This document shows, piece by piece, positions 2,425-30,658 of a DNA stretch of 32,000 bases (position 1 is the stretch's first letter; every line of letters starts with the position of its first letter). This DNA comes from Nitrosopumilus maritimus SCM1. GTDB taxonomy: Archaea; Thermoproteota; Nitrososphaeria; Nitrososphaerales; Nitrosopumilaceae. The stretch lies in contig NC_010085.1 of assembly GCF_000018465.1 (NCBI RefSeq), positions 1,380,001-1,412,000 on the forward strand, read 5' to 3'. The notes beneath the pieces were generated by a model. It was not told the DNA's origin and did no database searches. It was given only the letters and a program-made list of their open reading frames with translations. The position numbers and the translations under genes are program-made.

Positions 2425-2988
2425 ATGCCTCAAACAAAGCCTATTGTGAGTGTTGAAAATGTTGTTGCATCTGCATCAGTTGATCAAAAAATTGACTTGA
2501 ATGAGATTACAGAAAAATTTCCAGATACTGAATATCATCCAGAACAATTTCCAGGATTAGTTTTCAGATTAAGTACTCCAAGAACTGCAACATTGATCTT
2601 CAGAACAGGAAAAATGGTTTGTACTGGTGCAAAATCTGAAGAAATGGCAATCAAAGCTGTAAACACTGTAGTTCAAAAATTAAGAAAAGGAAAAATCAAA
2701 ATAAAAAATGATGCAGTTATTACTGTACAAAATATTGTTGCAGCAATTAATCTAGGTGGAAAAATACATCTAGAAAAAGCAGCAAGGACATTACCAAGAA
2801 GCATGTACGAACCTGAGCAATTTCCAGGACTAATTCACAGAATGCTTGATCCAAAAACCGTAATCTTGTTATTTGCATCAGGAAAATTAGTATGTACTGG
2901 AGCTAAAAAAGAATCAGATGTTTATCGCTCTGTTCACAACCTACATTCAGTCTTAGAAGAAAAAAATCTAATGATCTATGACGAATAG
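2425..2988 (+). CDS. tbp: TATA-box binding protein
   Basis: Two internal direct repeats are present, '...PEQFPGLVFRL...TGKMVCTGAKSEE' and '...PEQFPGLIHRM...SGKLVCTGAKKES'. Length is 187 aa. Confidence 0.95.
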   Translation: MPQTKPIVSVENVVASASVDQKIDLNEITEKFPDTEYHPEQFPGLVFRLSTPRTATLIFRTGKMVCTGAKSEEMAIKAVNTVVQKLRKGKIKIKNDAVITVQNIVAAINLGGKIHLEKAARTLPRSMYEPEQFPGLIHRMLDPKTVILLFASGKLVCTGAKKESDVYRSVHNLHSVLEEKNLMIYDE

Positions 2989-4939: not shown

Positions 4940-5287
4940 ATGCAAATGAAACGAATTGAGGCAACTGTTCAAGTGGACAAGGCCGGTGCAGTTTCTGATG
5001 CAATTAAAGACATTGTTGGAGGATTTACCATCACAGAGGGAAAGGGTAGAGGCTCTGGAAAAAGACAAGAGATCAGATCAGGAAGAGGTACAGGTTCATT
5101 CACAGCAGAATACAACAAAGTTGCAACAGTGATAACAGTGGTAGATGACTCTGAAGTAGAGAAAGTATCTTCAGCAATTGCAGATGCAGCTTTTACAGGA
5201 AAGGGTGGAGATGGAATTATTACAGTCTCTAGTGTAGAAAGTGCTCTAAATATAGCATCTAAAAAGACGGGTTCTGAAGCCCTCTAA
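4940..5287 (+). CDS. PII-like (GlnB-family fold) signal protein
   Basis: 'MKRIEATV...' is followed by a Gly/Arg-rich T-loop-like segment 'GKGRGSGKRQEIRSGRGTGSFTAEY' and then '...KGGDGIITVSSVE'. The true start may be the second ATG at 4946. Confidence 0.65.
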   Translation: MQMKRIEATVQVDKAGAVSDAIKDIVGGFTITEGKGRGSGKRQEIRSGRGTGSFTAEYNKVATVITVVDDSEVEKVSSAIADAAFTGKGGDGIITVSSVESALNIASKKTGSEAL

Positions 5288-6803: not shown

Positions 6804-8972
6804 TCAGTTATCTGGACAACCGTCAGTGTCTCTGTCACCATCATAGTCTTCAGGATCAAGTGGACACAAGTCTTCATCATTAATGATGTCATCTAGATCA
6901 TCATCATGGACAAATCTTTGTTGTTCTGGGGCAATATCTGGACAACCATCATCATCGTTGTATTTATTCCAGGTTTCTGGTTTTGATGGACAAGAATCAA
7001 TTGAATCATAGAATCCGTCACCATCAGAGTCAAATTTTGTTGGTGCTGTTGGTGCTGCAGCCAATATATCTGGGCAGCCATCCCAATCCAAGTATCCGTT
7101 AAAGTTCTCTTGTTCATCAAGACATGCATCCCATCTATCATCTATTCCATCACCATCAGCATCTGGGAAAGAATAGGATGAAGTCACAGTACCAGTAGAA
7201 TCAGGGCAACCGTCAGTATCTTGATAAAAATTATAAGTTTCAGGCTCTAGTGGGCAAGAGTCTAAAACATTTGGAATTCCATCCATGTCTGAATCAAGTG
7301 TAGATCGAGAATCATCAGGACAACCGTCAGTATCTTGGAATTTATTGTAAGTTTCAGGTTGTGTTGGACAGAGATCTAAATTATCAATAATGCCATCACC
7401 ATCAGAGTCATAGGCAGTAAAGCCATCTGTAAGAGAATCAGGACAACCGTCAGTATCTTGGAATTTATTGTAAGTTTCTTTTGCGGTAGGACATTGATCC
7501 ATTTTATCAATTATTCCATCTCCATCAGAATCTCCAAATGAATCATGTTCTATTGTATCAGGGCATCCATCTTCATCTTGGAATTTGTTGTAATTTTCTG
7601 CAATAGTAGGACATGAATCACGAACGTCAGGGATATGATCATAATCAGTATCAAGTAATGAAGATTTTGAAATTCCTGGAGTATCTGGACAGCCGTCAGA
7701 ATCTAAAAATCCGTTAAAGTTCTCTTGTTCATCAAGACATGCATCCCATCTATCATCTATTCCATCACCATCTGCATCTGGGAATGTATAAGAAAACAAA
7801 ACACCGTCAACAGAGTCTGGACAGCCGTCAGAATCTTGATAAAAGTTGTAAGTTTCAGGCTCTAGTGGACAAGAGTCTGAGACATTTGGAACACCATCTC
7901 TATCAGAGTCAAGTGTGGAAATAGAATAATCTGGGCAACCGTCAGAATCTTGGAATCCATTAAATGTTTCAGGTTGATTTGGACACCAATCTAAATTATC
8001 AATAATGCCATCACCATCAGAGTCATAGGCAGTAAAGCCATCTGTAAGAGAATCAGGGCAACCGTCAGAATCTTGGAGCTTGTTGTAAGTTTCAGGACTG
8101 TATGGACATGCATCATTTGCATTTAACAAACCATCACCATCTGCATCACCAGAAATTGGCAATTGTAAGACATCTGGACAGCCGTCAGAATCTTGGAACT
8201 TGTTGTAATTTTCACGTTCTAATGGACAAGCATCAACATCATCACCAATACTATCAAAATCAGAATCGATAAAGCCTTCTGAATCTACACCTGGAATATC
8301 AATACAACCATCTTGATCCTGGAAATTGTTATAGTTTTCAGGTTCGTTTAGACATTGATCCCATCTATCGTCTATTCCATCACCATCAGTATCTGGAAAT
8401 TGATAAAGAGAAGTTGTAGTGTCAACAGAGTCAGGACAGCCGTCAGAATCTTGATAAAAGTTGTAAGTTTCAGGCTCTAGTGGACAAGCATCTTTACCGT
8501 CAGAAATTCCATCTTGATCACGATCCAGTAGAGAATGATCATCATCAGGACAACCGTCAGTGTCATCAATTCCATTAAATGTTTCAGGTCTATTTGGACA
8601 CAAGTCTAGATAATCAGGAAAGCCGTCACCATCAGAGTCAGCAATTCCAGTATCACCATCAGGGGACAAATCAGGACAACCGTCAGTGTCTTGGAACTTG
8701 TTGTAAGTTTCTTTTACGGTCGGACATCTATCGATATGATCTTGGATACCATCATAATCAGCATCATACCAAGGAACAAAGTCTGCAGGACAGCCGTCAA
8801 TGTTGTTACCGTATTCAGGATCATAGTCCTCTAAGAGATGAGGACAAAAATCAACAGCATTTGGAACACCATCACCATCAGTGTCAATTGTAGTATTTGC
8901 AAAAACAATGTTTGGTGTCATTCCAATAGTTATGGTAAGTAAAATTAAAAATCCTAAAATATATTGTTTCAT
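6804..8972 (-). CDS. secreted thrombospondin-type-3-like Ca-binding repeat protein, paralog 1 (722 aa)
   Basis: I prefer the start at the internal ATG (8970-8972), giving 'MKQYILGFLILLTITIGMTPNIVFA|N', a signal peptide. About 17 'DGCP(D)' modules counted by eye. No TM anchor. Confidence 0.85.
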   Translation of the reverse strand: MKQYILGFLILLTITIGMTPNIVFANTTIDTDGDGVPNAVDFCPHLLEDYDPEYGNNIDGCPADFVPWYDADYDGIQDHIDRCPTVKETYNKFQDTDGCPDLSPDGDTGIADSDGDGFPDYLDLCPNRPETFNGIDDTDGCPDDDHSLLDRDQDGISDGKDACPLEPETYNFYQDSDGCPDSVDTTTSLYQFPDTDGDGIDDRWDQCLNEPENYNNFQDQDGCIDIPGVDSEGFIDSDFDSIGDDVDACPLERENYNKFQDSDGCPDVLQLPISGDADGDGLLNANDACPYSPETYNKLQDSDGCPDSLTDGFTAYDSDGDGIIDNLDWCPNQPETFNGFQDSDGCPDYSISTLDSDRDGVPNVSDSCPLEPETYNFYQDSDGCPDSVDGVLFSYTFPDADGDGIDDRWDACLDEQENFNGFLDSDGCPDTPGISKSSLLDTDYDHIPDVRDSCPTIAENYNKFQDEDGCPDTIEHDSFGDSDGDGIIDKMDQCPTAKETYNKFQDTDGCPDSLTDGFTAYDSDGDGIIDNLDLCPTQPETYNKFQDTDGCPDDSRSTLDSDMDGIPNVLDSCPLEPETYNFYQDTDGCPDSTGTVTSSYSFPDADGDGIDDRWDACLDEQENFNGYLDWDGCPDILAAAPTAPTKFDSDGDGFYDSIDSCPSKPETWNKYNDDDGCPDIAPEQQRFVHDDDLDDIINDEDLCPLDPEDYDGDRDTDGCPDN
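7375..8065 (-). repeat. intragenic super-repeat in paralog 1 (period ~609-615 nt)
   Basis: 'ttatcaataatgccatcaccatcagagtcataggcagtaaagccatctgtaagagaatcagg' occurs at 7381 and 7996, an offset of 615. 'gttcatcaagacatgcatcccatctatcatctattccatcaccatc' occurs at 7122 and 7731, an offset of 609. Confidence 0.85.
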
Positions 8973-8997
8973 AATCCCTGATTTCGCTATTATCAAG

Positions 8998-9007
8998 TAT
9001 TTATTAA
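8998..9007 (-). promoter_or_regulatory. TATA-like box for paralog 1
   Basis: The minus strand reads 'cttaataaatac', centred ~30 nt upstream of the ATG at 8972, inside the 82-nt spacer. Confidence 0.4.
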
Positions 9008-9054
9008 GTCTCACGTTAAATAGATTTTTTCGAAATACTAGAAATCAGTATTGA

Positions 9055-11223
9055 TTATGGATCAGGACAACCGTCAGTGTCTCTGTCACCATCATAGTCT
9101 TCAGGATCAAGTGGACACAAGTCTTCATCATTAATGATGTCATCTAGATCATCATCATGGACAAATCTCTGTTGTTCTGGAGCAATATCAGGACAGCCAT
9201 CTTTATCGAGATATTTGTTCCAGGTTTCGGGTTTTGATGGACAAGAATCAATTGAATCAGGATAGCCGTCACCATCAGAGTCAGCATATACAGGGGCAGT
9301 GGATTCTGCACCTAGGACATCAGGACAACCGTCCCAATCTAGATAATCATTATAGTTTTCTGGCTCATAAATACAAGCATCCCATCTATCTTCAATTCCA
9401 TCACCGTCAGTGTCAGGGAATGTATATCCAGATAGTGCACCATCAACTGAATCAGGACAACCATCAGTGTCTTGGTATTTATTGTAAGTCTCAGGTTCTA
9501 GTGGGCATGCATCATTAATGTCTAAAATTCCATCCATATCTGAATCAAGTTTAGAAATAGAATCATCTGGACAACCATCAGTGTCTTGGAATCCATTGTA
9601 AGTTTCAGGTCTAGTAGGACACAAGTCTAGATAATCAAATATTCCATCACCATCAGTGTCAGCAGATAGTTTGTTATCAGCAACCCAATCAGGGCAACCG
9701 TCAGTGTCTTGGAATTTATTGTAAGTTTCTTTTGCAGTAGGACATTGATCCACATCATCAAATATTCCATCTCCATCATAGTCACCTACTGTTTGATGAA
9801 CAACACTGTCAGGGCATCCATCTTCATCTTGGAATTTATTATATCTTTCAGCAATAGTTGGACATTCATCCAAGTGGTCTGCAATACCATCATAATCAGA
9901 ATCAATCATATCAGTTCCAGAAGTACCTACAATTTCAGGGCAACCGTCGTCATCTAAAAATCCATTATAGTTTTCTGGCTCATGAATACAAGCATCCCAT
10001 CTATCTTCAATTCCATCACCGTCAGTGTCAGGGAATGTATATCCAGATAGTGCACCATCAACTGAATCAGGACAACCATCAGTGTCTTGGTATTTATTGT
10101 AAGTCTCAGGTTCTAGTGGGCATGCATCATTAATGTCTAAAATTCCATCCATGTCTGCATCAAATCTATAAAGTGAATCATCAGGACAACCATCAGTATC
10201 TTGGAATTTATTGTAAGTTTCAGGTCTAGTAGGACACAAGTCTAGATTATCAATAATTCCATCACCATCAGTGTCAGCAGATAGTTTGTTATCAGCAACC
10301 CAATCAGGGCAACCGTCAGTGTCTAAGTATTTGTTATAAGTCTCAGGACTAAATGGACACGAATCATTTTGATCAAGTATTCCATCTCCATCAGAATCAC
10401 CAAAGATTACATGTTTGACAACATCTGGGCAACCGTCAGTGTCTTCAAATTTATTATAATTTTCACGATCTAATGGACAAGCATCAACATCATCAGGAAT
10501 GCCATCAAAGTCAGCATCAGGAGCTGTAGGATTCGTCACTCCAGGAATATCAGGACAACCGTCCCAATCTAGATTATTATTATAATTTTCTGGCTCATGA
10601 ATACAAGCATCCCATCTATCTTCAATTCCATCACCGTCAGTGTCAGGGAATGTATATCCAGATAGTGCACCATCAACTGAATCAGGACAACCATCAGTGT
10701 CTTGGTATTTGTTGTAAGTCTCAGGTTCTAGTGGACAAGTATCTTTACCGTCAGAAATTCCATCTTGATCACGATCCATTATAGAACGATCATCATCAGG
10801 ACAACCGTCAGTGTCATCAATTCCATTAAATGTTTCAGGTCTATTTGGACACAAGTCTAGATAATCAGGAAAGCCATCGCCATCGGTATCAGCAACATTT
10901 TTTGGACCATCAGGGGACAAATCAGGACAACCGTCAGTGTCTTGGAAACGATTGTAGGTTTCTTTTACGGTTGGACAGTTATCAACATGATCTTGAATAC
11001 CATCATAATCAGCATCATACCATGGAACAAAGTCTGCAGGACAACCGTCAATGTTGTTACCGTATTCAGGATCATAGTCCTCTAAGAGATGAGGACATTG
11101 ATCAACAGCATTTGGAACACCATCACCATCAGTGTCAATTGTAGTATTTGCAAAAACACTGTTTGGTGTCATTCCAATAGTTATGGTAAGTAAAATTAAA
11201 AATCCTAAAAGATATTGTTTCAT
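9055..11223 (-). CDS. secreted thrombospondin-type-3-like Ca-binding repeat protein, paralog 2 (722 aa)
   Basis: Starting at the internal ATG (11221-11223) gives 'MKQYLLGFLILLTITIGMTPNSVFA|N'. Module grammar matches paralog 1. Only 11 nt separate it from the stop of the upstream gene. Confidence 0.85.
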   Translation of the reverse strand: MKQYLLGFLILLTITIGMTPNSVFANTTIDTDGDGVPNAVDQCPHLLEDYDPEYGNNIDGCPADFVPWYDADYDGIQDHVDNCPTVKETYNRFQDTDGCPDLSPDGPKNVADTDGDGFPDYLDLCPNRPETFNGIDDTDGCPDDDRSIMDRDQDGISDGKDTCPLEPETYNKYQDTDGCPDSVDGALSGYTFPDTDGDGIEDRWDACIHEPENYNNNLDWDGCPDIPGVTNPTAPDADFDGIPDDVDACPLDRENYNKFEDTDGCPDVVKHVIFGDSDGDGILDQNDSCPFSPETYNKYLDTDGCPDWVADNKLSADTDGDGIIDNLDLCPTRPETYNKFQDTDGCPDDSLYRFDADMDGILDINDACPLEPETYNKYQDTDGCPDSVDGALSGYTFPDTDGDGIEDRWDACIHEPENYNGFLDDDGCPEIVGTSGTDMIDSDYDGIADHLDECPTIAERYNKFQDEDGCPDSVVHQTVGDYDGDGIFDDVDQCPTAKETYNKFQDTDGCPDWVADNKLSADTDGDGIFDYLDLCPTRPETYNGFQDTDGCPDDSISKLDSDMDGILDINDACPLEPETYNKYQDTDGCPDSVDGALSGYTFPDTDGDGIEDRWDACIYEPENYNDYLDWDGCPDVLGAESTAPVYADSDGDGYPDSIDSCPSKPETWNKYLDKDGCPDIAPEQQRFVHDDDLDDIINDEDLCPLDPEDYDGDRDTDGCPDP
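9351..10741 (-). repeat. three near-identical 165-187-nt cores with 612-615-nt period in paralog 2
   Basis: The cores start at 9351, 9966 and 10578 with 'tata(g/a)ttttctggctcat(a/g)aatacaagcatcccatctatcttcaattccatcaccgtcagtgtcagggaatgtatatccagatagtgcaccatcaactgaatcaggacaaccatcagtgtcttggtattt...'. Each encodes 'CPLEPETYNKYQDTDGCPDSVDGALSGYTFPDTDGDGIEDRWDACI(H/Y)EPENYN'. Confidence 0.9.
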
Positions 11224-11234
11224 GTTACAAGCAC

Positions 11235-13670
11235 CTAAGAGTCTGGACAACCGTCAGTGTCATTGTCACCGTCATAGTCCTCTGGTTCAAGTGGGCAGAG
11301 ATCATGTTCATTGATGATATCATCTAAATCAGCATCGTGTTTGTATCTTGATTGTTCTGGAGCAATATCAGGGCAACCATCAGCATCGTTGTATTTGTTC
11401 CAAGATTCTTTAAGATTTGGACACAAATCAACATTATCATTAATTCCATCGCCATCACTATCAATTACAACATTTCCAATTGGAAGAGTATCTGGACATC
11501 CGTCATAGTCAACATAATTATTCCAGGTTTCATTTTGAGTTGGGCACATATCCATTACATCAGGTACACCATCACCATCGGTATCTGGTTGGACATTATC
11601 AACATCAGGGCAACCATCTTCATCTTGGAAGCCGTTGTAATTTTCTGCAACTAGTGGACAATCATCATCAACATCAAGAATTCCATCATTGTCTGAATCA
11701 ACTACAAATGATTCAGATATTGTATCTGGACATCCGTCATCGTCTTGGAATTTATTCCAAGTTTCTTTTGCAGTTGGACATGCATCAATTGCATCAGGAA
11801 TACCATCTTGATCTCTGTCATAACCTAGGATGTAATCATCAGGACAGCCATCAAGATCAAGAATTCCATTATAGGTTTCTGGTTGATTTGGGCAATGATC
11901 ATTGTAATCATTTATTCCATCATTATCTGAATCTGGAGAACCTTTGTTATCTGCAACAGAATCAGGACAACCATCCAAGTCTTGGAATCTGTTGTAAGTT
12001 TCTGGAACAAGAGGACATTGATCTTCCAAGTCAACTATTCCATCAAAGTCTGAATCCATGCTAGTAAGGAAGTCAGGATAGTCAGGACAGCCATCTTCAT
12101 CTTGGAATCCATTGTATCTTTCTCTATCTAGTGGACATTCATCTACAGAGTCTAAAATACCATCAAAGTCTGAATCTCCTTCACCAGGAGTATCTGGACA
12201 TCCGTCATCGTCGTTGTATCTATTCCATGTTTCAGGTTCTGATGGACATTGATCTAAACTATCTCTAATTCCATCACCATCTGAATCCATAACAGATTCA
12301 TCTGGACATCCATCTTTATCTTGATATCCGTTGAATGTTTCAGGTCTTAGTGGACATTGATCATTCAAGTCAGAAATTCCATCACCATCAAAGTCCAATG
12401 CTGAAAGTCCAGACACAGAATCAGGACAACCATCAGAATCTTGGAACTTGTTGTAAGTTTCTTTTGCAGTAGGACACTGATCTAATCCATCAATAATACC
12501 ATCTCTATCACGGTCACCAGTACCATAAGAGTCAGGACAACCATCTCGGTCTTGGAATCCATTATGAATTTCTGGTTGATTTGGGCACAAGTCTCGGTTG
12601 TCAATTATGCCATCACCATCTGAATCAATTGCACCTCTGTTGTCTGCAACAAAGTCTGGACAGCCATCAAGGTCTTGGAATTTATTGTAAGTTTCTTTCA
12701 CAGTAGGACATTGATCAATACTATTTGGAATTCCATCCATGTCTGAATCACTATCACTTGTATAAGGTGGAATATCTGGGCAACCGTCATCATCTTGGAA
12801 TCCATTGTATCTTTCAGGTTCTAGTGGACATGCATCATCAGTATCCATTATTCTATCACCATCTGCATCATTTAAAGAACCAATAAAGGATGGAATAGAA
12901 TCTGGGCAACCGTCATAATCAGCAAAGCGATTAAAAGTTTCAGGATCAGTAGGACAAATATCAAATTGATTTGCAATTCCATCACCATCAGTATCAATGA
13001 AATCAGAATCTAATGTAACATCTGGACAACCGTCAGTGTCTAAATAATCATTATACACTTCAGGTTCTGTTGGACACAAATCTAGTGAATCTTTTATGCC
13101 ATCATTATCGGTATCAATAAAAGCTAAATCATTTTGTGCATCAGGGCAACCATCTGCATCTTGGAATCTATTGTAAGTTTCTGGACTTAGTGGACATGCA
13201 TCAATTGCATCAGGAACTCCATCTCTATCACGGTCACCAGAACCAAAGTCATCTGGACAACCATCTCTATCTAAAATGCCATTGAATGTTTCTGGTTGAT
13301 TAGGACATTTATCTACAGTATCTACAAATCCATCACCGTCAGAGTCAGGCAATCCACCAGGTCCTCCTTGAGGAGAAATATCTGGACAACCATCTTCATC
13401 TTGGAATTTATTGTATTTTTCTCTAAGATTTGGACATTGATCAATATGATCTTCTATTCCATCATAATCTTCATCATACCATGGAACAAAATTTGATGGA
13501 CAACCATCTATGGCACCTTCATTATCTTCACGTAAATTAGGACATGCATCAACAGTATCATCAACACCGTCATTATCTAAGTCAGTTGCTGCAAATGCAG
13601 GATTCATAGGCATACTAGTTAGAGTCGTTAACAGTAACAATAGGAATGGTAAAGTGTGTATTTTCTTCAA
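11235..13670 (-). CDS. secreted thrombospondin-type-3-like Ca-binding repeat protein, paralog 3 (811 aa, more divergent)
   Basis: TTG start. The signal peptide is 'MKKIHTLPFLLLLLTTLTSMPMNPAFA|A'. Modules follow the same 'D.DGDG..D..D.CP....E.YN.FQD.DGCPD' pattern. The C-terminal motif '...APEQSRYKHDADLDDIINEHDLCPLEPEDYDGDNDTDGCPDS' is shared with the other two. Confidence 0.85.
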   Translation of the reverse strand: MKKIHTLPFLLLLLTTLTSMPMNPAFAATDLDNDGVDDTVDACPNLREDNEGAIDGCPSNFVPWYDEDYDGIEDHIDQCPNLREKYNKFQDEDGCPDISPQGGPGGLPDSDGDGFVDTVDKCPNQPETFNGILDRDGCPDDFGSGDRDRDGVPDAIDACPLSPETYNRFQDADGCPDAQNDLAFIDTDNDGIKDSLDLCPTEPEVYNDYLDTDGCPDVTLDSDFIDTDGDGIANQFDICPTDPETFNRFADYDGCPDSIPSFIGSLNDADGDRIMDTDDACPLEPERYNGFQDDDGCPDIPPYTSDSDSDMDGIPNSIDQCPTVKETYNKFQDLDGCPDFVADNRGAIDSDGDGIIDNRDLCPNQPEIHNGFQDRDGCPDSYGTGDRDRDGIIDGLDQCPTAKETYNKFQDSDGCPDSVSGLSALDFDGDGISDLNDQCPLRPETFNGYQDKDGCPDESVMDSDGDGIRDSLDQCPSEPETWNRYNDDDGCPDTPGEGDSDFDGILDSVDECPLDRERYNGFQDEDGCPDYPDFLTSMDSDFDGIVDLEDQCPLVPETYNRFQDLDGCPDSVADNKGSPDSDNDGINDYNDHCPNQPETYNGILDLDGCPDDYILGYDRDQDGIPDAIDACPTAKETWNKFQDDDGCPDTISESFVVDSDNDGILDVDDDCPLVAENYNGFQDEDGCPDVDNVQPDTDGDGVPDVMDMCPTQNETWNNYVDYDGCPDTLPIGNVVIDSDGDGINDNVDLCPNLKESWNKYNDADGCPDIAPEQSRYKHDADLDDIINEHDLCPLEPEDYDGDNDTDGCPDS

Positions 13671-13808
13671 TGCCTAAAATATTCCTGAGGATCCAGTTAT
13701 TAAACCTCACTCTAAATTCGACCAAAAATATCAATGGTTTTGGGAAAATTTCAATCCTTTACAAAAAAACTCGATCAATTTAAGTAAACCAAAACAAGAT
13801 CTGGACTT

Positions 13809-24589: not shown

Positions 24590-26191
24590 TCATGGTTTGT
24601 TGAGATCACCGGTACCAAGATTTGGATTATTGTCTGCACCAACTCCCAAGTCAGCTTGAGTTTTTGGTGCAGAAACTTCTGGAGCAATAGGTTTCTCTTC
24701 AGGTTTTTCTGCTGCAGTTTCACCTTCAGGAAGTTTTGCAGATTCTTCGGGTTGTGAAGATTCTTCTGGTTCAGCTAGTTTTGGTTTCTCATCAGATACA
24801 GGAGCTGGAGGAGCTGGAGGAGCATTCTTTTGCTGACTCATACCATATCTGTAGATATGGAAGAAACCAGCAAATACCATCAGTATCAATCCAACAAAGA
24901 ACAAAGACATGTTGTTCATGCCAGTCAAAGCTGCATTGTATGCTGCAATGTTAAGGAATACTTGGAATGCTAGTAATGCAACAAGTAACCAGTTAATCCA
25001 TTTTTCAGATAGATCTAAGGTTGCAACTTTCTGCGGACCAGTATTTTTTGCTAGTTTTGATTTTCTCTCTGCTTCATTTGCAAGTTTGATCATCATGTAT
25101 GTAAATCCAAAACTCATAGGAACTAACAATATCATCACACTGTAAAAGAACACAGGATCAATTACCAAACGCTCAACTAATGGAATTGAGATGTCAGGTG
25201 AGATATAGAATCCCCAATAAGTTGTTACCATAATCTGTGCAAGGCTGGTAATTCCAAATGCAGTAATAATTGGTCTATCTCTCCAAGAGAATTTCTTGTA
25301 TCTATCAATAAATGGAATCAATACAAACGATATAATGAATATCAAAGGCCACAGCAACCCTGTTACAAACTTATCATACTGAGTTCTCATGAATGCATAA
25401 ATTCCAGTCAAATACCATTCAGGTACGGTTACACCAGGCGGTACGGTCGGCTCAAACTTGAATCCCAAATCAATTGGGAAAACACCACCAGTAATCAAAA
25501 TTGCACCAGCAATTGCCATAACCATTGGTACATCAAATACCAAGAATCTTGGGAAGTGAACTGCCATCAATCCAAGCATAACTATTGGCAACAAGAACAC
25601 ATGTTGAGCATAGAATCTCAATACAAAGTCCGAGAACCCACTACCCAACGCCGCGTCACGTATGACAGATCCGGCCACTGGAATTGAAGTGGTTAACGAC
25701 GCTGCAATACTAATTGCAAGTTGCGCTCTTTCAGAGAATATAACATCATATCCAGTAAATGCTTCTAAGATAGTAACAACGCCTAAGATAACACCAGTCA
25801 TCCATAAAACTTCATTTCTAATTTTGTATCTTCCACTAAAGTATTGATAATACATGTGAAGAACAGCTAAGAGAACCATTGCATTAGAACCATGATAGTG
25901 TATGTTTCTAATGTGGAATCCAAATGGAACTTCATCGTTAATGAATTGAACACTATCCCATGCTCTATCCAATATCGGTTGATAGTAAAACATGAGCAGA
26001 GCTCCTGAAATTCCTAGAATGATAAACACAATGAATGTTAACATTCCCAAAAATCCAAATGGACTTACAAATCTTGCAGGAAATGAAAACTTGATTGCAG
26101 TAAAGATAGTTCTATCTACACCTTCCCATAACCAATAGAGAAATTCAACTACACCATTTCTTCTTGGCTCAAGCGAAACGGCCATATCCAA
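24590..26191 (-). CDS. cytochrome b (fused b6 + subunit-IV-like) of a complex III analogue, with a Pro/Glu-rich C-terminal tail
   Basis: There are two His pairs on helices: 'HYHGSNAMVLLAVLH' (three His in all, 13-residue pair spacing) and 'HVFLLPIVMLGLMAVH'. The Qo-site motif 'PEWY' is present in 'VTVPEWYLTG'. Many TM segments are evident. The start overlaps the Rieske gene by 23 nt. Confidence 0.9.
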   Translation of the reverse strand: MDMAVSLEPRRNGVVEFLYWLWEGVDRTIFTAIKFSFPARFVSPFGFLGMLTFIVFIILGISGALLMFYYQPILDRAWDSVQFINDEVPFGFHIRNIHYHGSNAMVLLAVLHMYYQYFSGRYKIRNEVLWMTGVILGVVTILEAFTGYDVIFSERAQLAISIAASLTTSIPVAGSVIRDAALGSGFSDFVLRFYAQHVFLLPIVMLGLMAVHFPRFLVFDVPMVMAIAGAILITGGVFPIDLGFKFEPTVPPGVTVPEWYLTGIYAFMRTQYDKFVTGLLWPLIFIISFVLIPFIDRYKKFSWRDRPIITAFGITSLAQIMVTTYWGFYISPDISIPLVERLVIDPVFFYSVMILLVPMSFGFTYMMIKLANEAERKSKLAKNTGPQKVATLDLSEKWINWLLVALLAFQVFLNIAAYNAALTGMNNMSLFFVGLILMVFAGFFHIYRYGMSQQKNAPPAPPAPVSDEKPKLAEPEESSQPEESAKLPEGETAAEKPEEKPIAPEVSAPKTQADLGVGADNNPNLGTGDLNKP

Positions 26192-26774
26192 TTACTCCAT
26201 TTTCTTGCGCGTTAAACTTTGGGGGCAAGATGAATACTAATCCATCTGAATCAACTTCCAAAGTTAGTTTAGGTAAAGTGTTTGATGGTGAAGCTTGTAC
26301 TGATGCAGGACCAACATATGCAGTTCCAGAAACTGGATCATACATACTTCCATGACATGGGCATTCACCTCTTTTTCGTCCCTCATCAGGCCAATATTTC
26401 CACAAACACCAAAGATGAAGGCAAATCATACTGAAAGCTCTAAATGCAGAAGGATCATTTTTTGCTCCACCTAATTCTTCAGGTAATCTAATGAATTGCC
26501 ATTTACGAAATGCTTCAGCATCAAGTGCTGCATCACCGGTTGCAGGATATGTAATGACTTCAGCGTGATTTATTGGGTAAGTGTTAACGTTAGCTTGAGT
26601 GCCATCAGGTAGAATTACAGGTACTTTCTCAAGAGAAGCCTGATTTGGGTTTGGCATGAAATTACCAAATGGGACAAATGGAGCAAAAGCTAAACCAGTT
26701 CCTGCTGCACCCATTAACTTTAGAAAGTCTCTTCGGGATAATCCGGTAGACTTTTTCGTCCCCACCTCTGACAT
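26169..26774 (-). CDS. Rieske [2Fe-2S] protein with a twin-arginine signal
   Basis: The Tat motif is 'SRRDFLKLMGAAG'. The cluster motifs are 'CLHLWC' and 'CPCHGS'. Confidence 0.9.
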   Translation of the reverse strand: MSEVGTKKSTGLSRRDFLKLMGAAGTGLAFAPFVPFGNFMPNPNQASLEKVPVILPDGTQANVNTYPINHAEVITYPATGDAALDAEAFRKWQFIRLPEELGGAKNDPSAFRAFSMICLHLWCLWKYWPDEGRKRGECPCHGSMYDPVSGTAYVGPASVQASPSNTLPKLTLEVDSDGLVFILPPKFNAQENGVIGYGRFA

Positions 26775-26817: not shown

Positions 26818-29800
26818 TTACTTTGCAGGTTTTTGTCTAATTACAATAATAGAAACAATTCCGATCGCAATTCCAATAGCTATTCCTATTCCAATCCCTA
26901 CTAAAAGCAAAGAATCAGAGTCATTAGATGAAATTATGGTTTCTTTTACAATAGTTTCTTTTTCAATGGAAATAGTTTCATTTTTAGTGGTTTTCTCCAA
27001 GTCTGAAGACGTTTCATCTTCAATTATGATTTCTGAATTCTGAGATACTAATTCAGTAGAGATGTTTGTAAATTTTGCAGCTAATGTAATAGGTTCAGTT
27101 GTAGAATTTCCTCCAAACAATGTAGAGTGTGTCAACAATGTGTAAGTACCAGTTTGATTAATTGGCACATACAATACAGTTGATGTATCATCCTTGTTTT
27201 TTACTGGGAAAAATCCACCACCCTGACTAAATAGAGAATTTCCCAACCAATCAAGTGATGGCCATCCAAGAAAATGTCCAAACACTCCAGAAGGAACATT
27301 AGTTTGAATGATTTGTCCTAGAGGATCCATAACAAATACAGATAGGTTTGTATCATCACTAGTCCAGGAAAGTTCTATAGCTGCAGAATTTACAAATTCA
27401 TTTTGTACATCAAAGTAATATTGTCGCCAATCACCTGCCATGTAACGATTTGTCATATCAAATGCTCCTTTGGTATATCCATTTCCATAAAGGACGTCAT
27501 CATTTTGTTTTCCATGAATTATTATCGTTGAATCATTTTCGGTTATTGGTTCTTTAATTACAAATGATACTGGTGTGTTTACTTCATGCATTTTACTTTG
27601 AAAATTCAAAAATCCCTGATACACACCTGTTTCTAAATCAGTTGGAGTAACCAGAGTTACATCTACTGTTGAAACGCCATTAGAAGGAACAGTTATTGTT
27701 TCAGATTTAGGCCACAACATAGACCATTTAGTATTTTGATAATAACTTGCAGATATGGTATAATCCATTGATGTTGAATTTTGATTTGTGTTTCCTAACC
27801 AGTAAGAGTATCGTGTAGGAACTGGATAAACACCAACTAATGGAACACCATCAAATTTTTCATTTGGTTCTGACACTCGAATTTCTTGAACAGTTCCCCA
27901 AGATCCGCCTCTATTAACTAGAGATATTTCATCACTGGTAATTTTTGTATCATTATTGTTATCAAGCCAATCATACAAGTATAATGAAGAAATTTTAAGA
28001 TCATCAGCATAAACATCAGAAGTACTATTCATAAATTGATCAAAAGGAAAATTTACGTTTAAGATCATTAAAGAAGATTCATCAGGGATGGGATTTTTTT
28101 CATCAAAGAAATCCTCTAGGTCTTCATGAGGTTTTACATCAGATAATTTTACATAATTTGGAATAAATGTATCAGTTTTATTCAAAATGGAATCGTGTTG
28201 ACGAGGAGTTGTTGTTCCGTTAAATTGAGTATGTTTAATCAGAGCCAATGTTTCTGGTTTTACATCAACAATAATTTCATTTTCTGTAGGATTTGAGATA
28301 GTAAAAGTTGCAGTAGTTCTATCCCCGGCAATCAATTGTCCTCCAAACCAACTAGCCATAGGAAGAGAGTGTGAAGGAAGTTTGAATTGCTGAAAACCTA
28401 TTGCAGTGTGATTAAAGTTTTCAATCGAAGGCTCAAGAATTTTTTTGAGGTTTTCATAAGAATTTTCATTAGTTACCATAAACACACCATTTTTTCCATG
28501 AACATAATCTAAAGCAGAGTTAACATTTGTCAAACCGGAACCTTGGGTAAAAGGGTCATTATTCATATCTACTGCAGTAGACATTAAGATATTTTTTATC
28601 ATAAATGAATCATAGTCTTGAGATTGTTTTGTCATCTCTTCAATCAAAATGGCAGCACTTCCAGAAACTAATGGGGCAGCCATGCTAGTCCCTCCAAATA
28701 ATGAAAAGGATTCATCCTTGGAATCTTTTGTAGTTTTTATCATATTTGAGGGAACAAATCCATGAGCACCAAGACTCATCACATCAGGTTTTGGATCACC
28801 AATTGCAGTTGGTCCTCGACTTGAGAAATCAACTACATGATTATAGTGATTAGTTGAATTACCAAATCTTGGTTGGTCTTTGAATGGACCATATCCAACA
28901 AAAACATTGTTAGTAGTAGCCCCAACAGTTATTCCAAAGGGAGATGCATTAGGTAGTCCAATTGTTCCATATCCATGACCAGAGTTCCCAGCACTAGATA
29001 CCATTACAACTCCAGGATAATCATCATCAAGTGAATGAGGGGTTGAAAGAATACTTTGGATTAATGATAAGACATCCATTCCCGGTGCAGATTTGAATGA
29101 TGGGAAATTTGAAATGCCCCAGCTGTTGGAAATTATATCTACTCTAGGTTTTCCAGAAAATTCCCAAATATTATCTCCATTTTCAAATCCTGCAGACCAT
29201 AACCATGCATAAACAGTATCACCGAACCATAATGCCTTTACAGGCAAAATTTTTGCACCAGGTGCAACACCAGTTATTGAATATTTTTTAGTGTCATTGT
29301 AAATATCGTATGTTTCTTGTCCGCGAGAAACAATTGATGCAGTACTTGAAGTACCATGCCCCATAAAATCAGTCATTATACCAAAAAATTCACCATTAGG
29401 ATCTAATGCAGGTAAAAGAGTGCCATTAATTGCATTTAGTTTATCATCAATTTCAGTGGAATTGTTTCTAATAACACCATAAACATCTAAAACTTGTGCA
29501 CCAATTGTTCCAGCACTGTAATCAGTTTTTCCATCGTTGTTTGAATCATAAACAAGAAATTCGTTACCACTTCCCAAAACAATTGGTTTTTCATCAGTAA
29601 AATCAAAATCATAATTTGGTTGTTGCCCAGAAGGTAAGCTAAATCGAGTATAGTCTTCCCAAGAAGTACTCATATCAGGAATAATTGTATCATATACTCC
29701 AGGAATAAAAGAATCAACTACAAGAACAGGTACGACTTGAACTTTGGCAAGAGGTCCACTTAATCCTCCTTGATAAATTACACCAAGACGGTATTCTCCA

Positions 29801-30627
29801 CTTTTTGATTTTATGTAATTTCTATTATCTTGTCCTATTTTCATATCTTTATCTAAAGTTCCTTTAAAAATTGGAGATGAACCAATTTGTGGAAAAAAGG
29901 AATTGTAAATTTGAATATCACTTCCTTTTCCTCCTTGAGAAAGATCAAGAAATATTCCTTCCCTAGTAACATATGCAGAAGAAATCATATGTTCTGGAAT
30001 GGGTTTTGTATAATTTCGTATAATTTCATTTTCGTCAATATATGCAAAAAAAGTTGAATTGGTTAGAATAATTCCTTGTCCATCAGGATCAAGCATAAGA
30101 GGATGATTAAGTTCATCTCTAGCAAGAGAATGTTGTATGTCGGGGTTTGAAAAATCAACTCCAGTGTCTATAATTGCAATTACAGTTCCATTTCCTGATG
30201 CATTGTAATTGAGTTGTGCATTTTTTGATCCAGTGATTTCGCCAATTCGTGTAGCATCAACTATTTCATTATCAGATGAATGAAAATCTAATTTAGAATC
30301 TTCAATTATGTGAATTCCTTGGCTTGCCAATAATGAAGCTGATTTTTCAGATAAAAGTGAAACATAAAAAAATCCATGATCAGATTTTATTCCATATATT
30401 GAATTATTTTCTAAGTAATCATAATTTTGAGTGTTTGTTCCAAAAATCAAATAACGTTTAAAATGATTTTCTACAAAAAAATTTGAATCAACATCAATTA
30501 TTTGAGAAGTAAATTCAATCGTTTGGGAATTATCTTGTAGGTATACATCATCACCAGTAAATGCATACGAATTTGCCAAAAAACTAGATAAAAGAAGGAT
30601 TGAAAAGAAAATAGCCGCCTTGGGCAT
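26818..30627 (-). CDS. very large secreted, C-terminally membrane-anchored subtilisin-like (S8) serine protease
   Basis: The triad is Asp in 'AIIDTGVD' (codon 30166-30168), His in 'HGTSSTASIV' (29356-29358) and Ser in 'GGTSMAAPLVSG' (28684-28686), with oxyanion 'SAGNSG'. I prefer the internal ATG at 30627, which gives the signal peptide 'MPKAAIFFSILLLSSFLANSYA' and places a TATA-like box ~27 nt upstream. The C-terminal TM is 'LLLVGIGIGIAIGIAIGIVSIIVI' followed by 'RQKPAK'. Confidence 0.85.
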   Translation of the reverse strand: MPKAAIFFSILLLSSFLANSYAFTGDDVYLQDNSQTIEFTSQIIDVDSNFFVENHFKRYLIFGTNTQNYDYLENNSIYGIKSDHGFFYVSLLSEKSASLLASQGIHIIEDSKLDFHSSDNEIVDATRIGEITGSKNAQLNYNASGNGTVIAIIDTGVDFSNPDIQHSLARDELNHPLMLDPDGQGIILTNSTFFAYIDENEIIRNYTKPIPEHMISSAYVTREGIFLDLSQGGKGSDIQIYNSFFPQIGSSPIFKGTLDKDMKIGQDNRNYIKSKSGEYRLGVIYQGGLSGPLAKVQVVPVLVVDSFIPGVYDTIIPDMSTSWEDYTRFSLPSGQQPNYDFDFTDEKPIVLGSGNEFLVYDSNNDGKTDYSAGTIGAQVLDVYGVIRNNSTEIDDKLNAINGTLLPALDPNGEFFGIMTDFMGHGTSSTASIVSRGQETYDIYNDTKKYSITGVAPGAKILPVKALWFGDTVYAWLWSAGFENGDNIWEFSGKPRVDIISNSWGISNFPSFKSAPGMDVLSLIQSILSTPHSLDDDYPGVVMVSSAGNSGHGYGTIGLPNASPFGITVGATTNNVFVGYGPFKDQPRFGNSTNHYNHVVDFSSRGPTAIGDPKPDVMSLGAHGFVPSNMIKTTKDSKDESFSLFGGTSMAAPLVSGSAAILIEEMTKQSQDYDSFMIKNILMSTAVDMNNDPFTQGSGLTNVNSALDYVHGKNGVFMVTNENSYENLKKILEPSIENFNHTAIGFQQFKLPSHSLPMASWFGGQLIAGDRTTATFTISNPTENEIIVDVKPETLALIKHTQFNGTTTPRQHDSILNKTDTFIPNYVKLSDVKPHEDLEDFFDEKNPIPDESSLMILNVNFPFDQFMNSTSDVYADDLKISSLYLYDWLDNNNDTKITSDEISLVNRGGSWGTVQEIRVSEPNEKFDGVPLVGVYPVPTRYSYWLGNTNQNSTSMDYTISASYYQNTKWSMLWPKSETITVPSNGVSTVDVTLVTPTDLETGVYQGFLNFQSKMHEVNTPVSFVIKEPITENDSTIIIHGKQNDDVLYGNGYTKGAFDMTNRYMAGDWRQYYFDVQNEFVNSAAIELSWTSDDTNLSVFVMDPLGQIIQTNVPSGVFGHFLGWPSLDWLGNSLFSQGGGFFPVKNKDDTSTVLYVPINQTGTYTLLTHSTLFGGNSTTEPITLAAKFTNISTELVSQNSEIIIEDETSSDLEKTTKNETISIEKETIVKETIISSNDSDSLLLVGIGIGIAIGIAIGIVSIIVIRQKPAK

Positions 30628-30648
30628 CAAATAATTTTTGCATCTAAC

Positions 30649-30658
30649 ATTATTATAA
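30649..30658 (-). promoter_or_regulatory. TATA-like box for the S8 protease gene
   Basis: The minus strand reads 'gttataataat', centred ~27 nt upstream of the ATG at 30627. It abuts the stop codon of the upstream gene. Confidence 0.4.

Follow-up and report, generated by a model that had tools for sequence, protein, structure and literature searches.

The window (the whole stretch of 32,000 nucleotides of Nitrosopumilus maritimus DNA analysed here) hosts three consecutive genes whose products consist almost entirely of thrombospondin type 3 (TSP3) repeats. On balance, and with slightly better than even confidence, we believe that these proteins, P1, P2 and P3, are Ca2+-folded, disulfide-stapled structural or matrix proteins of the cell envelope. 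This analysis has established how the genes are built, that their products belong to the TSP3 family, their architecture, the selection on them, their synteny and the conservation of the promoter and Shine–Dalgarno (SD) elements, and we infer Ca2+ binding, disulfides, an envelope location and a structural role for P1-P3. Marine ammonia-oxidising archaea (AOA) rank among the ocean's most abundant cells, and the capture of very dilute ammonium by their envelope and its tolerance of H2O2 are active questions. The products of the triplet are among the most strongly H2O2-responsive proteins in reports on Nitrosopumilus.

Gene array, expression signals and conservation

The ORF list bears out the positions and lengths (722, 722 and 811 aa) of the three same-strand genes that a first-pass annotation had proposed, as well as its estimate that they fill about 21% of the window (6867/32000 nt). 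The genes and the elements that accompany them are:

11235-13670, minus strand: P3, first gene of the array, ORF with a TTG start, 811 aa
9055-11223, minus strand: P2, second gene of the array, ORF with an ATG start, 722 aa
6804-8972, minus strand: P1, third gene of the array, ORF with an ATG start, 722 aa
13697..13710, minus strand: putative promoter core GTGAGGTTTAATAA, BRE-like purines and a TATA-like box, ends 26 nt before the P3 start codon
11232..11236, minus strand: AGGTG, SD-like sequence that overlaps the P3 stop, 8 nt before the P2 ATG
9001..9014, minus strand: second copy of the putative promoter core, GTGAGACTTAATAA, ends 28 nt before the P1 start codon
6799..6803, minus strand: run of five T right after the P1 stop, from the sequence a candidate archaeal oligo-T terminator

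The TTG start of P3 is kept in 21 genomes. Longer alternative starts (GTG at 9014 and TTG at 11250) were ruled out, because ortholog N-termini begin MK(K)QY.. and because the conserved promoter and SD elements fall inside these extensions. P3 and P2 are separated by 11 nt, P2 and P1 by 82 nt.

The promoter-core motif (search form GTGAGRYTTAATAA) was found by an alignment of 15 loci and stands ahead of genes 3 and 1. These are its two matches in the window, where 0.10 are expected, and it is kept in ~20 genomes, with a constant 25-26 nt between core and start codon in the others. Such conservation suggests that the core acts as a promoter, and its short distance from the start of P3 implies that the P3 mRNA is leaderless or has a very short leader. 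Within the closely spaced pair of P3 and P2, only P3 is preceded by the motif, which agrees with the earlier view that the two are co-transcribed. The AGGTG sequence is probably the ribosome-binding site of P2, a layout that is typical of an internal archaeal operon gene; TAGGAG or TAGGTG is found upstream of internal genes in other TSP3 arrays. The promoter of its own that had been suspected for P1 is supported too, as the copy of this conserved motif at 9001..9014 would mark P1 as a separate transcription unit. The five-T run may serve as an oligo-T terminator for the array.

Several other signals were rejected. A sigma-70 promoter scan is not applicable to an archaeon and returned background (29 matches vs 29.6 expected). 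Terminator-like hairpins are in excess (10 vs 2.8 expected) because the codons for QDTDGCPD are repeated; nearly all of them are antisense within coding sequence, and we do not consider them functional. Antisense ORFs, 82-194 aa long, that lie within the array genes are by-products of repeat composition. Horizontal transfer was ruled out as the source of the raised G+C of the array (0.39 vs 0.33), since the excess sits at codon position 1, where it derives from Asp and Gly, and since the GC3 of the array genes (0.18-0.21) is like that of neighbouring genes.

The array belongs to a Dus-[TSP3]n-Tyw1 locus that is found in 80 Nitrosopumilus/Nitrosarchaeum genomes with 1-4 TSP3 genes each. Most complete Nitrosopumilus loci carry a triplet between Dus and Tyw1, and 7 surveyed lineages have one gene only, so that a set of three is not essential. 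Overall dN/dS values of 0.11-0.18 (0.11-0.14 for P3 and 0.13-0.18 for P2) indicate purifying selection. Judged by dN/dS, the 80-genome locus and a GC3 like that of the neighbours, the array genes are real and maintained. In the closest genome the orthologs are 85-88% identical, and Tyw1 is up to 96% identical to copies in Nitrosopumilus MAGs. No partner gene was found, the neighbours being tRNA-modification and other housekeeping genes. The orthologs were taken from genome loci because two protein libraries yielded no full-length ortholog of P1-P3, but just pieces 90-170 aa long. Assemblies made from short reads are interrupted within the array, which leaves the family under-represented in MAG-based catalogues, where its annotation is no more than 'partial'.

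Modules, super-repeats and predicted structure

Each protein is a string of modules of ~40 aa (17 in P1, 17 in P2 and 20 in P3) with the consensus DxDxDGIxDxxDxCPxxxExYNxxxDxDGCPD, and these modules span 96% of its length. One consensus fits 51/54 modules, with an invariant D at six positions (those at -13, -11, -9 and -2 among them), plus E, G and two C, and the Cys pairs have a fixed C-x15-C spacing in 51/54 modules. A module has three parts: an EF-hand-like DxDxDGxxDxxD loop, the Cys pair, which most likely forms an intra-module disulfide, and a second acidic turn, DxDG. The relaxed motif DxDxDGxxDxxD occurs 17, 17 and 19 times in P1, P2 and P3, and the ~17 'DGCP' modules reported for P1 were counted as 16 'DGCP' and one 'DGCI'.

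The TSP3 grammar that had been recognised by eye is borne out by profile search. Pfam TSP_3 (PF02412) scores 105, 136 and 116 bits, vs a cut-off of 25, with E-values of 1e-30 to 1e-40 (6e-34 for P3) and 5-6 separately scored stretches per protein. These scores are far above the cut-off, therefore the grammar is no chance resemblance. As the first reading had also held, there is no sign of an enzymatic domain: the Pfam and NCBIfam profiles show no domain other than TSP_3 in P1-P3, and they gave no redox motif, no cofactor site, no binding domain (lectin, Ig or other) and, in Pfam, no match to the OmpA-like domain PF00691. No anchor or S-layer-binding domain was found in the three proteins.

A survey of domain architectures supports the view that whole proteins made of TSP3 are unusual. 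TSP3 coverage does not exceed 73% among the ~220 best database relatives from two protein libraries; each of these has a domain of another kind (beta-barrel, OmpA, PKD/Ig or DsbA), and none is all-TSP3. Only 3 residues follow the last module in P1-P3, compared with about 120-130 in the bacterial matches. In AOA-like proteins TSP3 modules precede PKD/Ig and cupredoxin-like domains (P0054 and P0028), which is consistent with a stalk or spacer role of the modules, and TSP3-DsbA fusions exist as well (P0001 and P0016); the gene neighbourhood of P0016 gave no further clue.

P1-P3 have masses of 77-86 kDa, net charges of about -158 to -180 and 34, 34 and 40 Cys residues, and Asp makes up 21.9-22.2% of their sequence. 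For the N-terminal 118 residues of mature P1 an earlier count of Asp had given 29; the number is 27, and the proportion of about one residue in four stands. The predicted signal peptides, super-repeats and C-terminal modules are:

13590..13670, minus strand: P3 signal peptide MKKIHTLPFLLLLLTTLTSMPMNPAFA, predicted cut before A (hydropathy, AxA-type cleavage site, kept in orthologs)
11149..11223, minus strand: P2 signal peptide MKQYLLGFLILLTITIGMTPNSVFA, predicted cut before N (hydropathy, ortholog N-termini)
8898..8972, minus strand: P1 signal peptide MKQYILGFLILLTITIGMTPNIVFA, predicted cut before N (hydropathy, ortholog N-termini)
11241..13379, minus strand: three 6-module super-repeats of P3, more diverged (12654-13379, 11961-12653, 11241-11960; module register)
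9061..10920, minus strand: three 5-module super-repeats of P2, 615-627 nt each (10303-10920, 9688-10302, 9061-9687)
6810..8669, minus strand: three 5-module super-repeats of P1 (8052-8669, 7437-8051, 6810-7436; module register, repeats)
6807..6932 (P1), 9058-9183 (P2) and 11238-11363 (P3), minus strand: C-terminal cap module IAPEQQRFVHDDDLDDIINDEDLCPLDPEDYDGDRDTDGCPD, the most conserved module

The signal peptides were judged by eye and hydropathy. They look like the Sec type, with a Lys n-region, an h-region of KD 2.1-2.9 and VFA|N or AFA|A sites, and the mature proteins contain no hydrophobic segment (the maximum 19-residue hydropathy is 0.3); on both counts the initial description of Sec-dependent proteins without a TM anchor is upheld. 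The C-termini end ..DGCPD[NPS] without a hydrophobic tail, and no sorting signal of the MYXO-CTERM or PGF/PEFG-CTERM kinds was found in P1-P3.

All three proteins start with a signal peptide and 2 N-terminal modules, which are followed by 3 super-repeats of 5 modules in P1 and P2 and 3 of 6 modules in P3. P2 has a self-identity of 0.52 at an offset of 205 aa, and its internal 300-nt copies, spaced 615 nt apart, are 87-92% identical, while the self-offset signal of P3 is weak (0.22 at 240 aa). Tandem Repeats Finder reported nothing on the array because the 615-nt period exceeds its 500-nt limit; we recovered the period by offset identity and a repeat search. Among loci, lengths differ in steps of entire super-repeats, of 5 modules (17/22/27 modules in all) or of 6 (20/26). 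The cap module is 100% identical between P1 and P2 and 81% between P2 and P3, and it also stands ahead of the DsbA domain in P0001 and P0016. Overall, P1 and P2 are 77% identical, yet their 5′ ends agree at 94-97% and their last modules at 100%; going by these identities, the 5′ ends of the two paralogs are homogenised by gene conversion.

Sequence matches to solved structures include COMP (3FBY) and Capnocytophaga gingivalis OmpA (5WTL). AF2 models, which were made without calcium and have moderate confidence, are devoid of helices and strands outside the signal peptide, with a pLDDT of about 70-77 in the module cores and <50 in the linkers, and a pTM of 0.18-0.26. Foldseek gave significant matches to TSP3 structures alone, namely 5WTL (E 3e-12 and 1e-7), 1YO8, 3FBY and 2RHP, with low TM-scores. 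Both models match 5WTL best.

A proposed calcium-folded envelope component and alternative roles

In the model that we propose, the Sec system would export the TSP3 chains, which would be oxidised between the membrane and the S-layer; the DsbA and PDI families of AOA genomes are large. Sea water contains Ca2+ at about 10 mM, and the chains would fold around this ion into a string of rigid beads with short linkers and no secondary structure, comparable to the calcium 'wire' found in thrombospondin/COMP and in OmpA-family proteins of bacteria. Motif conservation and the TSP, COMP and OmpA precedents suggest that the modules of P1-P3 bind Ca2+. The folded chains would form a Ca2+-dependent structural or matrix part of the envelope, the amount of which would rise strongly under H2O2 stress, an induction that could be indirect. 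Evolution would tune their length through the gain or loss of whole 5- or 6-module super-repeats, with the conserved first two modules and the last module acting as caps. A calcium-dependent envelope is documented for N. maritimus, as EGTA strips it (PMC11153153).

The extreme charge of these proteins raises another possibility, which the first-pass annotation had put forward as a buffer for Ca2+, Cu2+ or NH4+: a polyanionic gel in the pseudo-periplasm that serves as a cation reservoir or conduit, extends the charge gradient of the S-layer and concentrates NH4+ and other cations near ammonia monooxygenase. Some -90 to -100 charges per protein are left when two Ca2+ are computed for each module, so that a general polyanion or counter-ion role is possible. 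The N. maritimus S-layer sieves cations and has a charge gradient that grows in the direction of the membrane, whole cells no longer bind ammonium in 5 mM EGTA, and the family is conserved across Nitrosopumilus and Nitrosarchaeum. However, nearly all of the invariant acidic residues are at canonical Ca2+-ligand positions of the TSP3 motif, and it is doubtful that a non-specific polyanion could selectively gather NH4+ at micromolar levels against 0.5 M Na+ and 50 mM Mg2+. The scarcity of His (5-8 per protein) and Met (2-6) makes a copper-specific role unlikely, some lineages have one gene only, and the published expression response is to H2O2, which according to the Bayer et al. supplement differs fundamentally from that to ammonia or copper limitation (Qin et al.). 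We therefore regard a reservoir as quite unlikely. There is a slender chance that the TSP3 chains are the contents of the pseudo-periplasm, as a gel that continues the S-layer charge gradient and helps NH4+ to reach ammonia monooxygenase; if so, these chains, and not the S-layer alone, would cause part of the effect of EGTA on envelope integrity and ammonium binding.

Adhesion is unlikely as well, although several observations point towards it. Proteins released to or through the S-layer could form Ca2+ bridges to cells or particles, like Mts in Myxococcus. In NCBIfam, P1-P3 come closest to MtsC, a 'cell-cell cohesion' model, yet this similarity is below the cut-off and comes from the shared repeats alone. 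Bayer et al. (2019) saw small aggregates in H2O2-exposed cultures and cite the mts locus; Wang et al. (2019), according to the text that cites them, proposed an adhesion role in deep-sea AOA; and the thrombospondin genes of marine group II archaea have been interpreted as serving adhesion (PMC6461757). Judged by record titles, the 7 single-gene loci are mostly from single-cell or uncultured marine group I genomes and the multi-gene arrays from MAGs of unstated habitat, a weak correlation. Against this, P1-P3 carry neither a lectin, Ig or other binding domain nor a sorting signal, and the S-layer pores are lined for ions and appear to offer no obvious route for proteins of 77-86 kDa. A protective sink, in which an abundant carboxylate-rich protein of the pseudo-periplasm sequesters Fenton-active metals or is a sacrificial barrier to H2O2, would fit the 15-40x induction, which is specific to H2O2-exposed cultures and reversed by catalase or a catalase-positive partner, and which Bayer et al. 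(2019) compare to a permeability barrier. By our own reasoning dense carboxylate sites could bind Fe3+ or Mn2+, but 10 mM Ca2+ would out-compete trace metals at most of them. The cysteines should be in the oxidised state from the start and thus unable to scavenge, Met is rare (2-6 per protein), and there is no redox motif or cofactor site in P1-P3, so that we find a sink very improbable.

Comparison with known TSP3 systems

Metazoan thrombospondins and COMP (1UX6, 1YO8 and 3FBY) share the Pfam TSP_3 family with P1-P3, and their Asp-rich, disulfide-stabilised extracellular repeats have no secondary structure and hold many Ca2+; binding by the signature domains of TSPs is cooperative and involves ~30 Ca2+, most of which sit in the type 3 repeats (PMC4502920). 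In the metazoan proteins, however, the wire comes after an oligomerisation coil and EGF domains and is wrapped around an L-lectin domain at the C-terminus. The name 'thrombospondin' that NCBI gives to the ortholog fragments is misleading, because these domains and the coil are absent from P1-P3.

The TSP3 region of C. gingivalis OmpA (5WTL) is made of similar modules, in which a DxDxDGxxDxxD loop comes before an intra-repeat Cys pair. By its title, a 2017 study by Dai and colleagues reports intra-repeat disulfide-dependent Ca2+ binding in this protein. The repeats of bacterial OmpA-family proteins are shorter, at about 23-25 aa with Cys ~12 apart and without the FQDxDG extension, and a few of them link a beta-barrel to a peptidoglycan-binding OmpA domain. 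P1-P3 have 17-20 modules of ~40 aa, no other domain and an organism without peptidoglycan. Myxococcus MtsC (NF047638) and TraB (NF033763) are also prokaryotic envelope proteins rich in modules of the C-x15-C type, with roles in cohesion or envelope tethering, and the TSP3 part of TraB is a linker that is predicted to bind calcium (PMC12045341). These two models give P1-P3 their highest NCBIfam scores, but P1-P3 fall far below the cut-offs of both (122-181 bits vs 350 for MtsC and 73-117 vs 700 for TraB), lack the MYXO-CTERM, beta-barrel and OmpA parts, and come from an archaeon with an S-layer.

The S-layer protein NmSLP (Nmar_1547) offers a functional analogy only. It is strongly acidic, Ca2+-dependent, from the same genus and handles cations, but it has Ig-like domains, a lattice and a membrane-proximal C-terminus, and bears no sequence or fold relation to P1-P3.

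The closest known system is the family itself, and the suggestion that the triplet is an undescribed system did not hold: it is in Bayer et al. (2019), it has the NCBI 'thrombospondin' name, and Wang et al. (2019), as cited in PMC7265257, describe a thrombospondin-like extracellular structure in deep-sea AOA. Gene family OG0007 of Bayer et al. (2019) comprises 'thrombospondin type 3 repeat-containing' (TT3R) genes, three with consecutive gene ids per strain, from N. maritimus SCM1 (IMG 641317177-641317179), N. adriaticus NF5 and N. piranensis D3C. H2O2 raised the abundance of two TT3R proteins 15-40x, alongside a rise of S-layer and PEFG-CTERM proteins and the formation of small aggregates, and DsbA (OG0005) and PDI (OG0009) were among the largest gene families. 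We tentatively identify P1-P3 with OG0007 from the shared annotation, the tandem triplet in Nitrosopumilus and the length of the modelled member, 722 residues like P1 and P2, with the synteny in 80 related genomes as further indirect evidence; that member also matched COMP, TSP-2 and C. gingivalis OmpA, as P1-P3 do. One difference is the 10% alanine that the Bayer et al. supplement gives for putative thrombospondins, compared with 3-4% in P1-P3. The family is already annotated and detected in the proteomes of cultured Nitrosopumilus. New here, and not described by Bayer et al. (2019), are the module grammar, the super-repeat arithmetic, the gene conversion and the promoter motif. With an exact module definition, a distinctive all-repeat architecture, copy and module numbers that change in fixed steps and a promoter motif, the family becomes easier to recognise and to test.

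Genes, modules and fold of the repeat proteins

Three consecutive same-strand open reading frames, P3, P2 and P1 in array order, encode proteins built of TSP3 modules of about 40 residues:

6804-13670, minus strand: the whole TSP3 array, three consecutive ORFs located by ORF finding
11235-13670, minus strand: P3, TTG start, 811 aa
9055-11223, minus strand: P2, ATG start, 722 aa
6804-8972, minus strand: P1, ATG start, 722 aa

Longer upstream starts proposed by the ORF finder were dropped: orthologs start with MK(K)QY.. or MKKIH.., and the extensions also hold conserved promoter or ribosome-binding elements. Each N-terminus is a plausible Sec signal peptide, with a lysine-containing n-region, a hydrophobic core and a VFA-N or AFA-A cleavage site, and no further hydrophobic segment follows it in P1-P3 (maximum 19-residue hydropathy 0.3). 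Asp makes up 22% of the residues, net charge is -158 to -178, and the cysteines (34, 34 and 40 in P1, P2 and P3) are paired at an exact 16-residue spacing.

The description in the first-pass annotation is accurate in most respects: the three genes lie where it placed them, with the lengths it gave, P3 and P2 are 11 nt apart, the array takes up 21% of the window, and a signal peptide without a membrane anchor fits the N-termini. Its roughly 17 DGCP modules in P1 are 16 DGCP and one DGCI. Of the first 118 residues of mature P1 we count 27 as Asp rather than 29, still about one in four.

Cutting after every second Cys yields 17, 17 and 20 modules (P1, P2, P3) of 36-44 residues. The consensus DxDxDG(I)xDxxDxCPxxxExYNxxxDxDGCPD, in which Asp at six positions, Glu, Gly and both Cys are invariant, is matched by 51 of the 54. 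P1 and P2 each consist of two N-terminal modules and three super-repeats of five modules, and match themselves with an identity of 0.46-0.52 when shifted by 205 aa and of 0.59-0.64 when shifted by 615 nt; an independent repeat finder recovers 300-nt copies every 615 nt, which are 87-92% identical within P2. P3 has two modules followed by three more diverged units of six. Modules 2-4 and the last module (IAPEQxRxxHDxDLDDIIN..) are best kept between paralogs; in the last module P1 and P2 share 100% of their residues, and P2 and P3 share 81%.

Terminator-like hairpins are in excess at 8318-11761 on the plus strand (10 against 2.8 expected, of which 9 run antisense to TSP3 genes), because the codons of the repeated QDTDGCPD motif are near-palindromic. 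They are probably meaningless, but could promote replication slippage or inter-module recombination.

A TSP3 profile search, as the first-pass annotation had suggested, places the modules far above the Pfam TSP_3 cut-off (105-136 bits against 25). In the PDB, sequence comparison picks out COMP (3FBY) and the Capnocytophaga gingivalis OmpA (5WTL). Foldseek matches are exclusively TSP3-containing structures, 5WTL ahead of TSP-2, COMP and TSP-1, with TM-scores so low that the common feature is the module type and not the overall shape. Together these matches identify the modules as genuine type 3 repeats, and as the prokaryotic kind. AlphaFold finds no regular secondary structure in full-length P2 (pLDDT 58, pTM 0.18) or in a three-module model (pLDDT 66); local pLDDT is about 70-77 in module cores and below 50 in linkers. 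NCBIfam offers only sub-threshold, repeat-driven likeness to MtsC, TraB and a peptidoglycan anchor lipoprotein, and assignment to the OmpA family, MtsC or TraB was rejected.

The modules span 96% of each protein. Among the best 120 matches of a 5.8-billion-protein search and 100 more (at least 300 aa) from a 1.84-billion representative library, the span reaches at most 73%, and every one of the 220 also bears a beta-barrel, OmpA, PKD/Ig, DsbA or other region. Full-length orthologs are absent from both libraries. An all-TSP3 protein is thus unusual, as had been proposed. In the AOA-like library proteins P0001, P0016 (L081 440-2104), P0028 and P0054 the same modules, including the PEQxRxxHDxDLD cap, lie N-terminal to DsbA/thioredoxin, cupredoxin-like or PKD/Ig-like domains, so TSP3 chains appear also to form the N-terminal stalk of other domains outside the cytoplasm.

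Expression signals and evolution of the locus

In alignments of 15 loci, P3 and P1 are preceded by a conserved element whose common core is GTGAG-R-YTTAATAA, and internal array genes by a different signal:

13697-13710 and 9001-9014: promoter core, the only two matches in the window against 0.10 expected by chance
11232-11236, minus strand: AGGTG, putative ribosome-binding site of P2, with TAGGAG or TAGGTG counterparts in other arrays

Across about 20 genomes the core stops 25-28 nt short of the start codon, a spacing that would fit an archaeal BRE/TATA promoter and an mRNA with a very short leader or none. Internal genes lack the core and carry TAGGAG or TAGGTG 8-12 nt before the ATG. The earlier guess that P3 and P2 are transcribed together, and P1 from its own TATA-like box, finds support in these conserved elements; judged by conservation, P1 would be separate but under similar control. 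A second conserved block, GTTTACTTAAATTGATCGAG (13760-13808), between P3 and the divergent Tyw1 gene, which it adjoins, is probably the Tyw1 TATA box on the other strand.

The array is flanked by housekeeping genes (Dus, Tyw1, Ham1, Bud32, Kae1, TBP, TGT, cytochrome b and Rieske), with Tyw1 up to 96% identical to that of Nitrosopumilus MAGs. In 80 related loci, 5 of them on contigs too short to show this side, TSP3 genes lie directly upstream of Tyw1 wherever there is enough sequence, and Dus lies on the far side wherever the contig reaches it. A few kb downstream of the array are genes for a TATA-binding protein (2425-2988, plus strand) and a small P-II-like nitrogen regulatory protein (4940-5287, plus strand). 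Elsewhere in the window, complex III-like cytochrome b and Tat-signal Rieske genes (24590-26774, minus strand; G+C locally up to 0.37-0.38) adjoin the gene of a 1292-aa subtilase-family protein (26818-30696, minus strand).

Arrays hold one (7 loci), two, three (most) or four genes. The single-gene loci (L018, L021, L025, L028, L037, L039 and L063), mostly from single-cell or uncultured marine group I genomes, carry a distinct variant of 17-18 modules with an MKVKYAI.. signal; it keeps the TTG start but has neither the C-terminal cap module nor the GTGAG-TTAATAA promoter core. Module numbers are stepped (17, 22 or 27 in the P1/P2 type, 20 or 26 in the P3 type), which implies length shifts by whole super-repeats. 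Purifying selection acts on each of the three genes (dN/dS 0.11-0.18 in comparisons with five genomes), and their GC3, the same as in neighbouring genes, marks them as native. Over their first 125 residues P1 and P2 share 93% identity inside one genome and 78% between genomes, whereas middle parts track orthology (0.71 for orthologs, 0.65 across paralog types). This pattern indicates that gene conversion has acted on the 5′ ends of paralogs that are otherwise old. Variant arrays (L006 1166-9865, L064 1385-9865 and L049 2674-9915) suggest that unequal recombination is still going on: some have four genes, including short ones of 8-9 modules, all the downstream genes of L064 share one identical 16-nt ribosome-binding region, and L049 has truncated or odd-length genes (13 and 16 modules).

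Metagenomes systematically under-assemble the TSP3 family. Among L001-L080, dozens of contigs from short-read MAGs (e.g. L002, L005, L009, L011, L013, L014, L019, L020 and L022) break inside the array, 0.5-3.5 kb upstream of Tyw1, and the libraries contain close relatives only as pieces 90-170 aa long, which NCBI labels 'thrombospondin, partial'.

Possible roles in the cell envelope

On balance we lean towards an envelope component with a structural or matrix role that depends on Ca2+. Chains exported by Sec would form disulfides in the pseudo-periplasm and, by analogy with TSP/COMP, where about 30 Ca2+ are bound cooperatively (PMC4502920), may fold around Ca2+ into a chain of rigid beads, accumulating under oxidative stress. 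Nitrosopumilus genomes count DsbA and PDI among their largest gene families (Bayer et al. 2019, PMC6593220), TSP3-DsbA fusions occur among the library proteins, and the N. maritimus envelope is Ca2+-dependent and stripped by EGTA (PMC11153153). In H2O2-exposed cultures two TT3R ('thrombospondin type 3 repeat') proteins rose 15-40-fold, together with S-layer and PEFG-CTERM proteins (Bayer et al. 2019, PMC6593220).

Small aggregates were also seen in those cultures (PMC6593220), and an adhesive thrombospondin-like structure has been proposed for deep-sea AOA by Wang et al. 2019, as relayed by Zhong et al. 2020 (PMC7265257); a role as adhesin or cohesion factor is the least improbable of the alternatives, though we doubt it. 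We consider a cation reservoir or conduit, close to what the first-pass annotation imagined, unlikely. Charge would still be about -90 to -100 with two Ca2+ per module and the S-layer acts as a cation sieve (PMC11153153), but cation binding is conjectured from charge, and what has been published is a reaction to H2O2 rather than to a shortage of ammonia or copper. Still less likely is that the proteins act as a protective sink for metals or oxidants. The earlier observations held up, and their interpretation did so in part.

Relation to described proteins

The first-pass annotation saw in the array the window's strongest candidate for an undescribed system; in fact the family had been annotated and found expressed. 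Bayer et al. 2019 (PMC6593220) list three consecutive gene ids each in N. adriaticus NF5, N. maritimus SCM1 and N. piranensis D3C, and used TSP-2, COMP and the C. gingivalis OmpA as templates for a model of one member that ends at residue 722. The supplement of PMC6593220 gives 10% Ala for putative thrombospondins, against 3.2-3.9% in P1-P3; that statement was either meant for other proteins or mistaken. Metazoan thrombospondins have EGF, lectin and oligomerisation domains, whereas P1-P3 have none of the three, which rules them out as thrombospondins. They belong to a known, annotated and expressed family of uncharacterised function. This is not a new kind of system; what is new here is the architectural and evolutionary detail.
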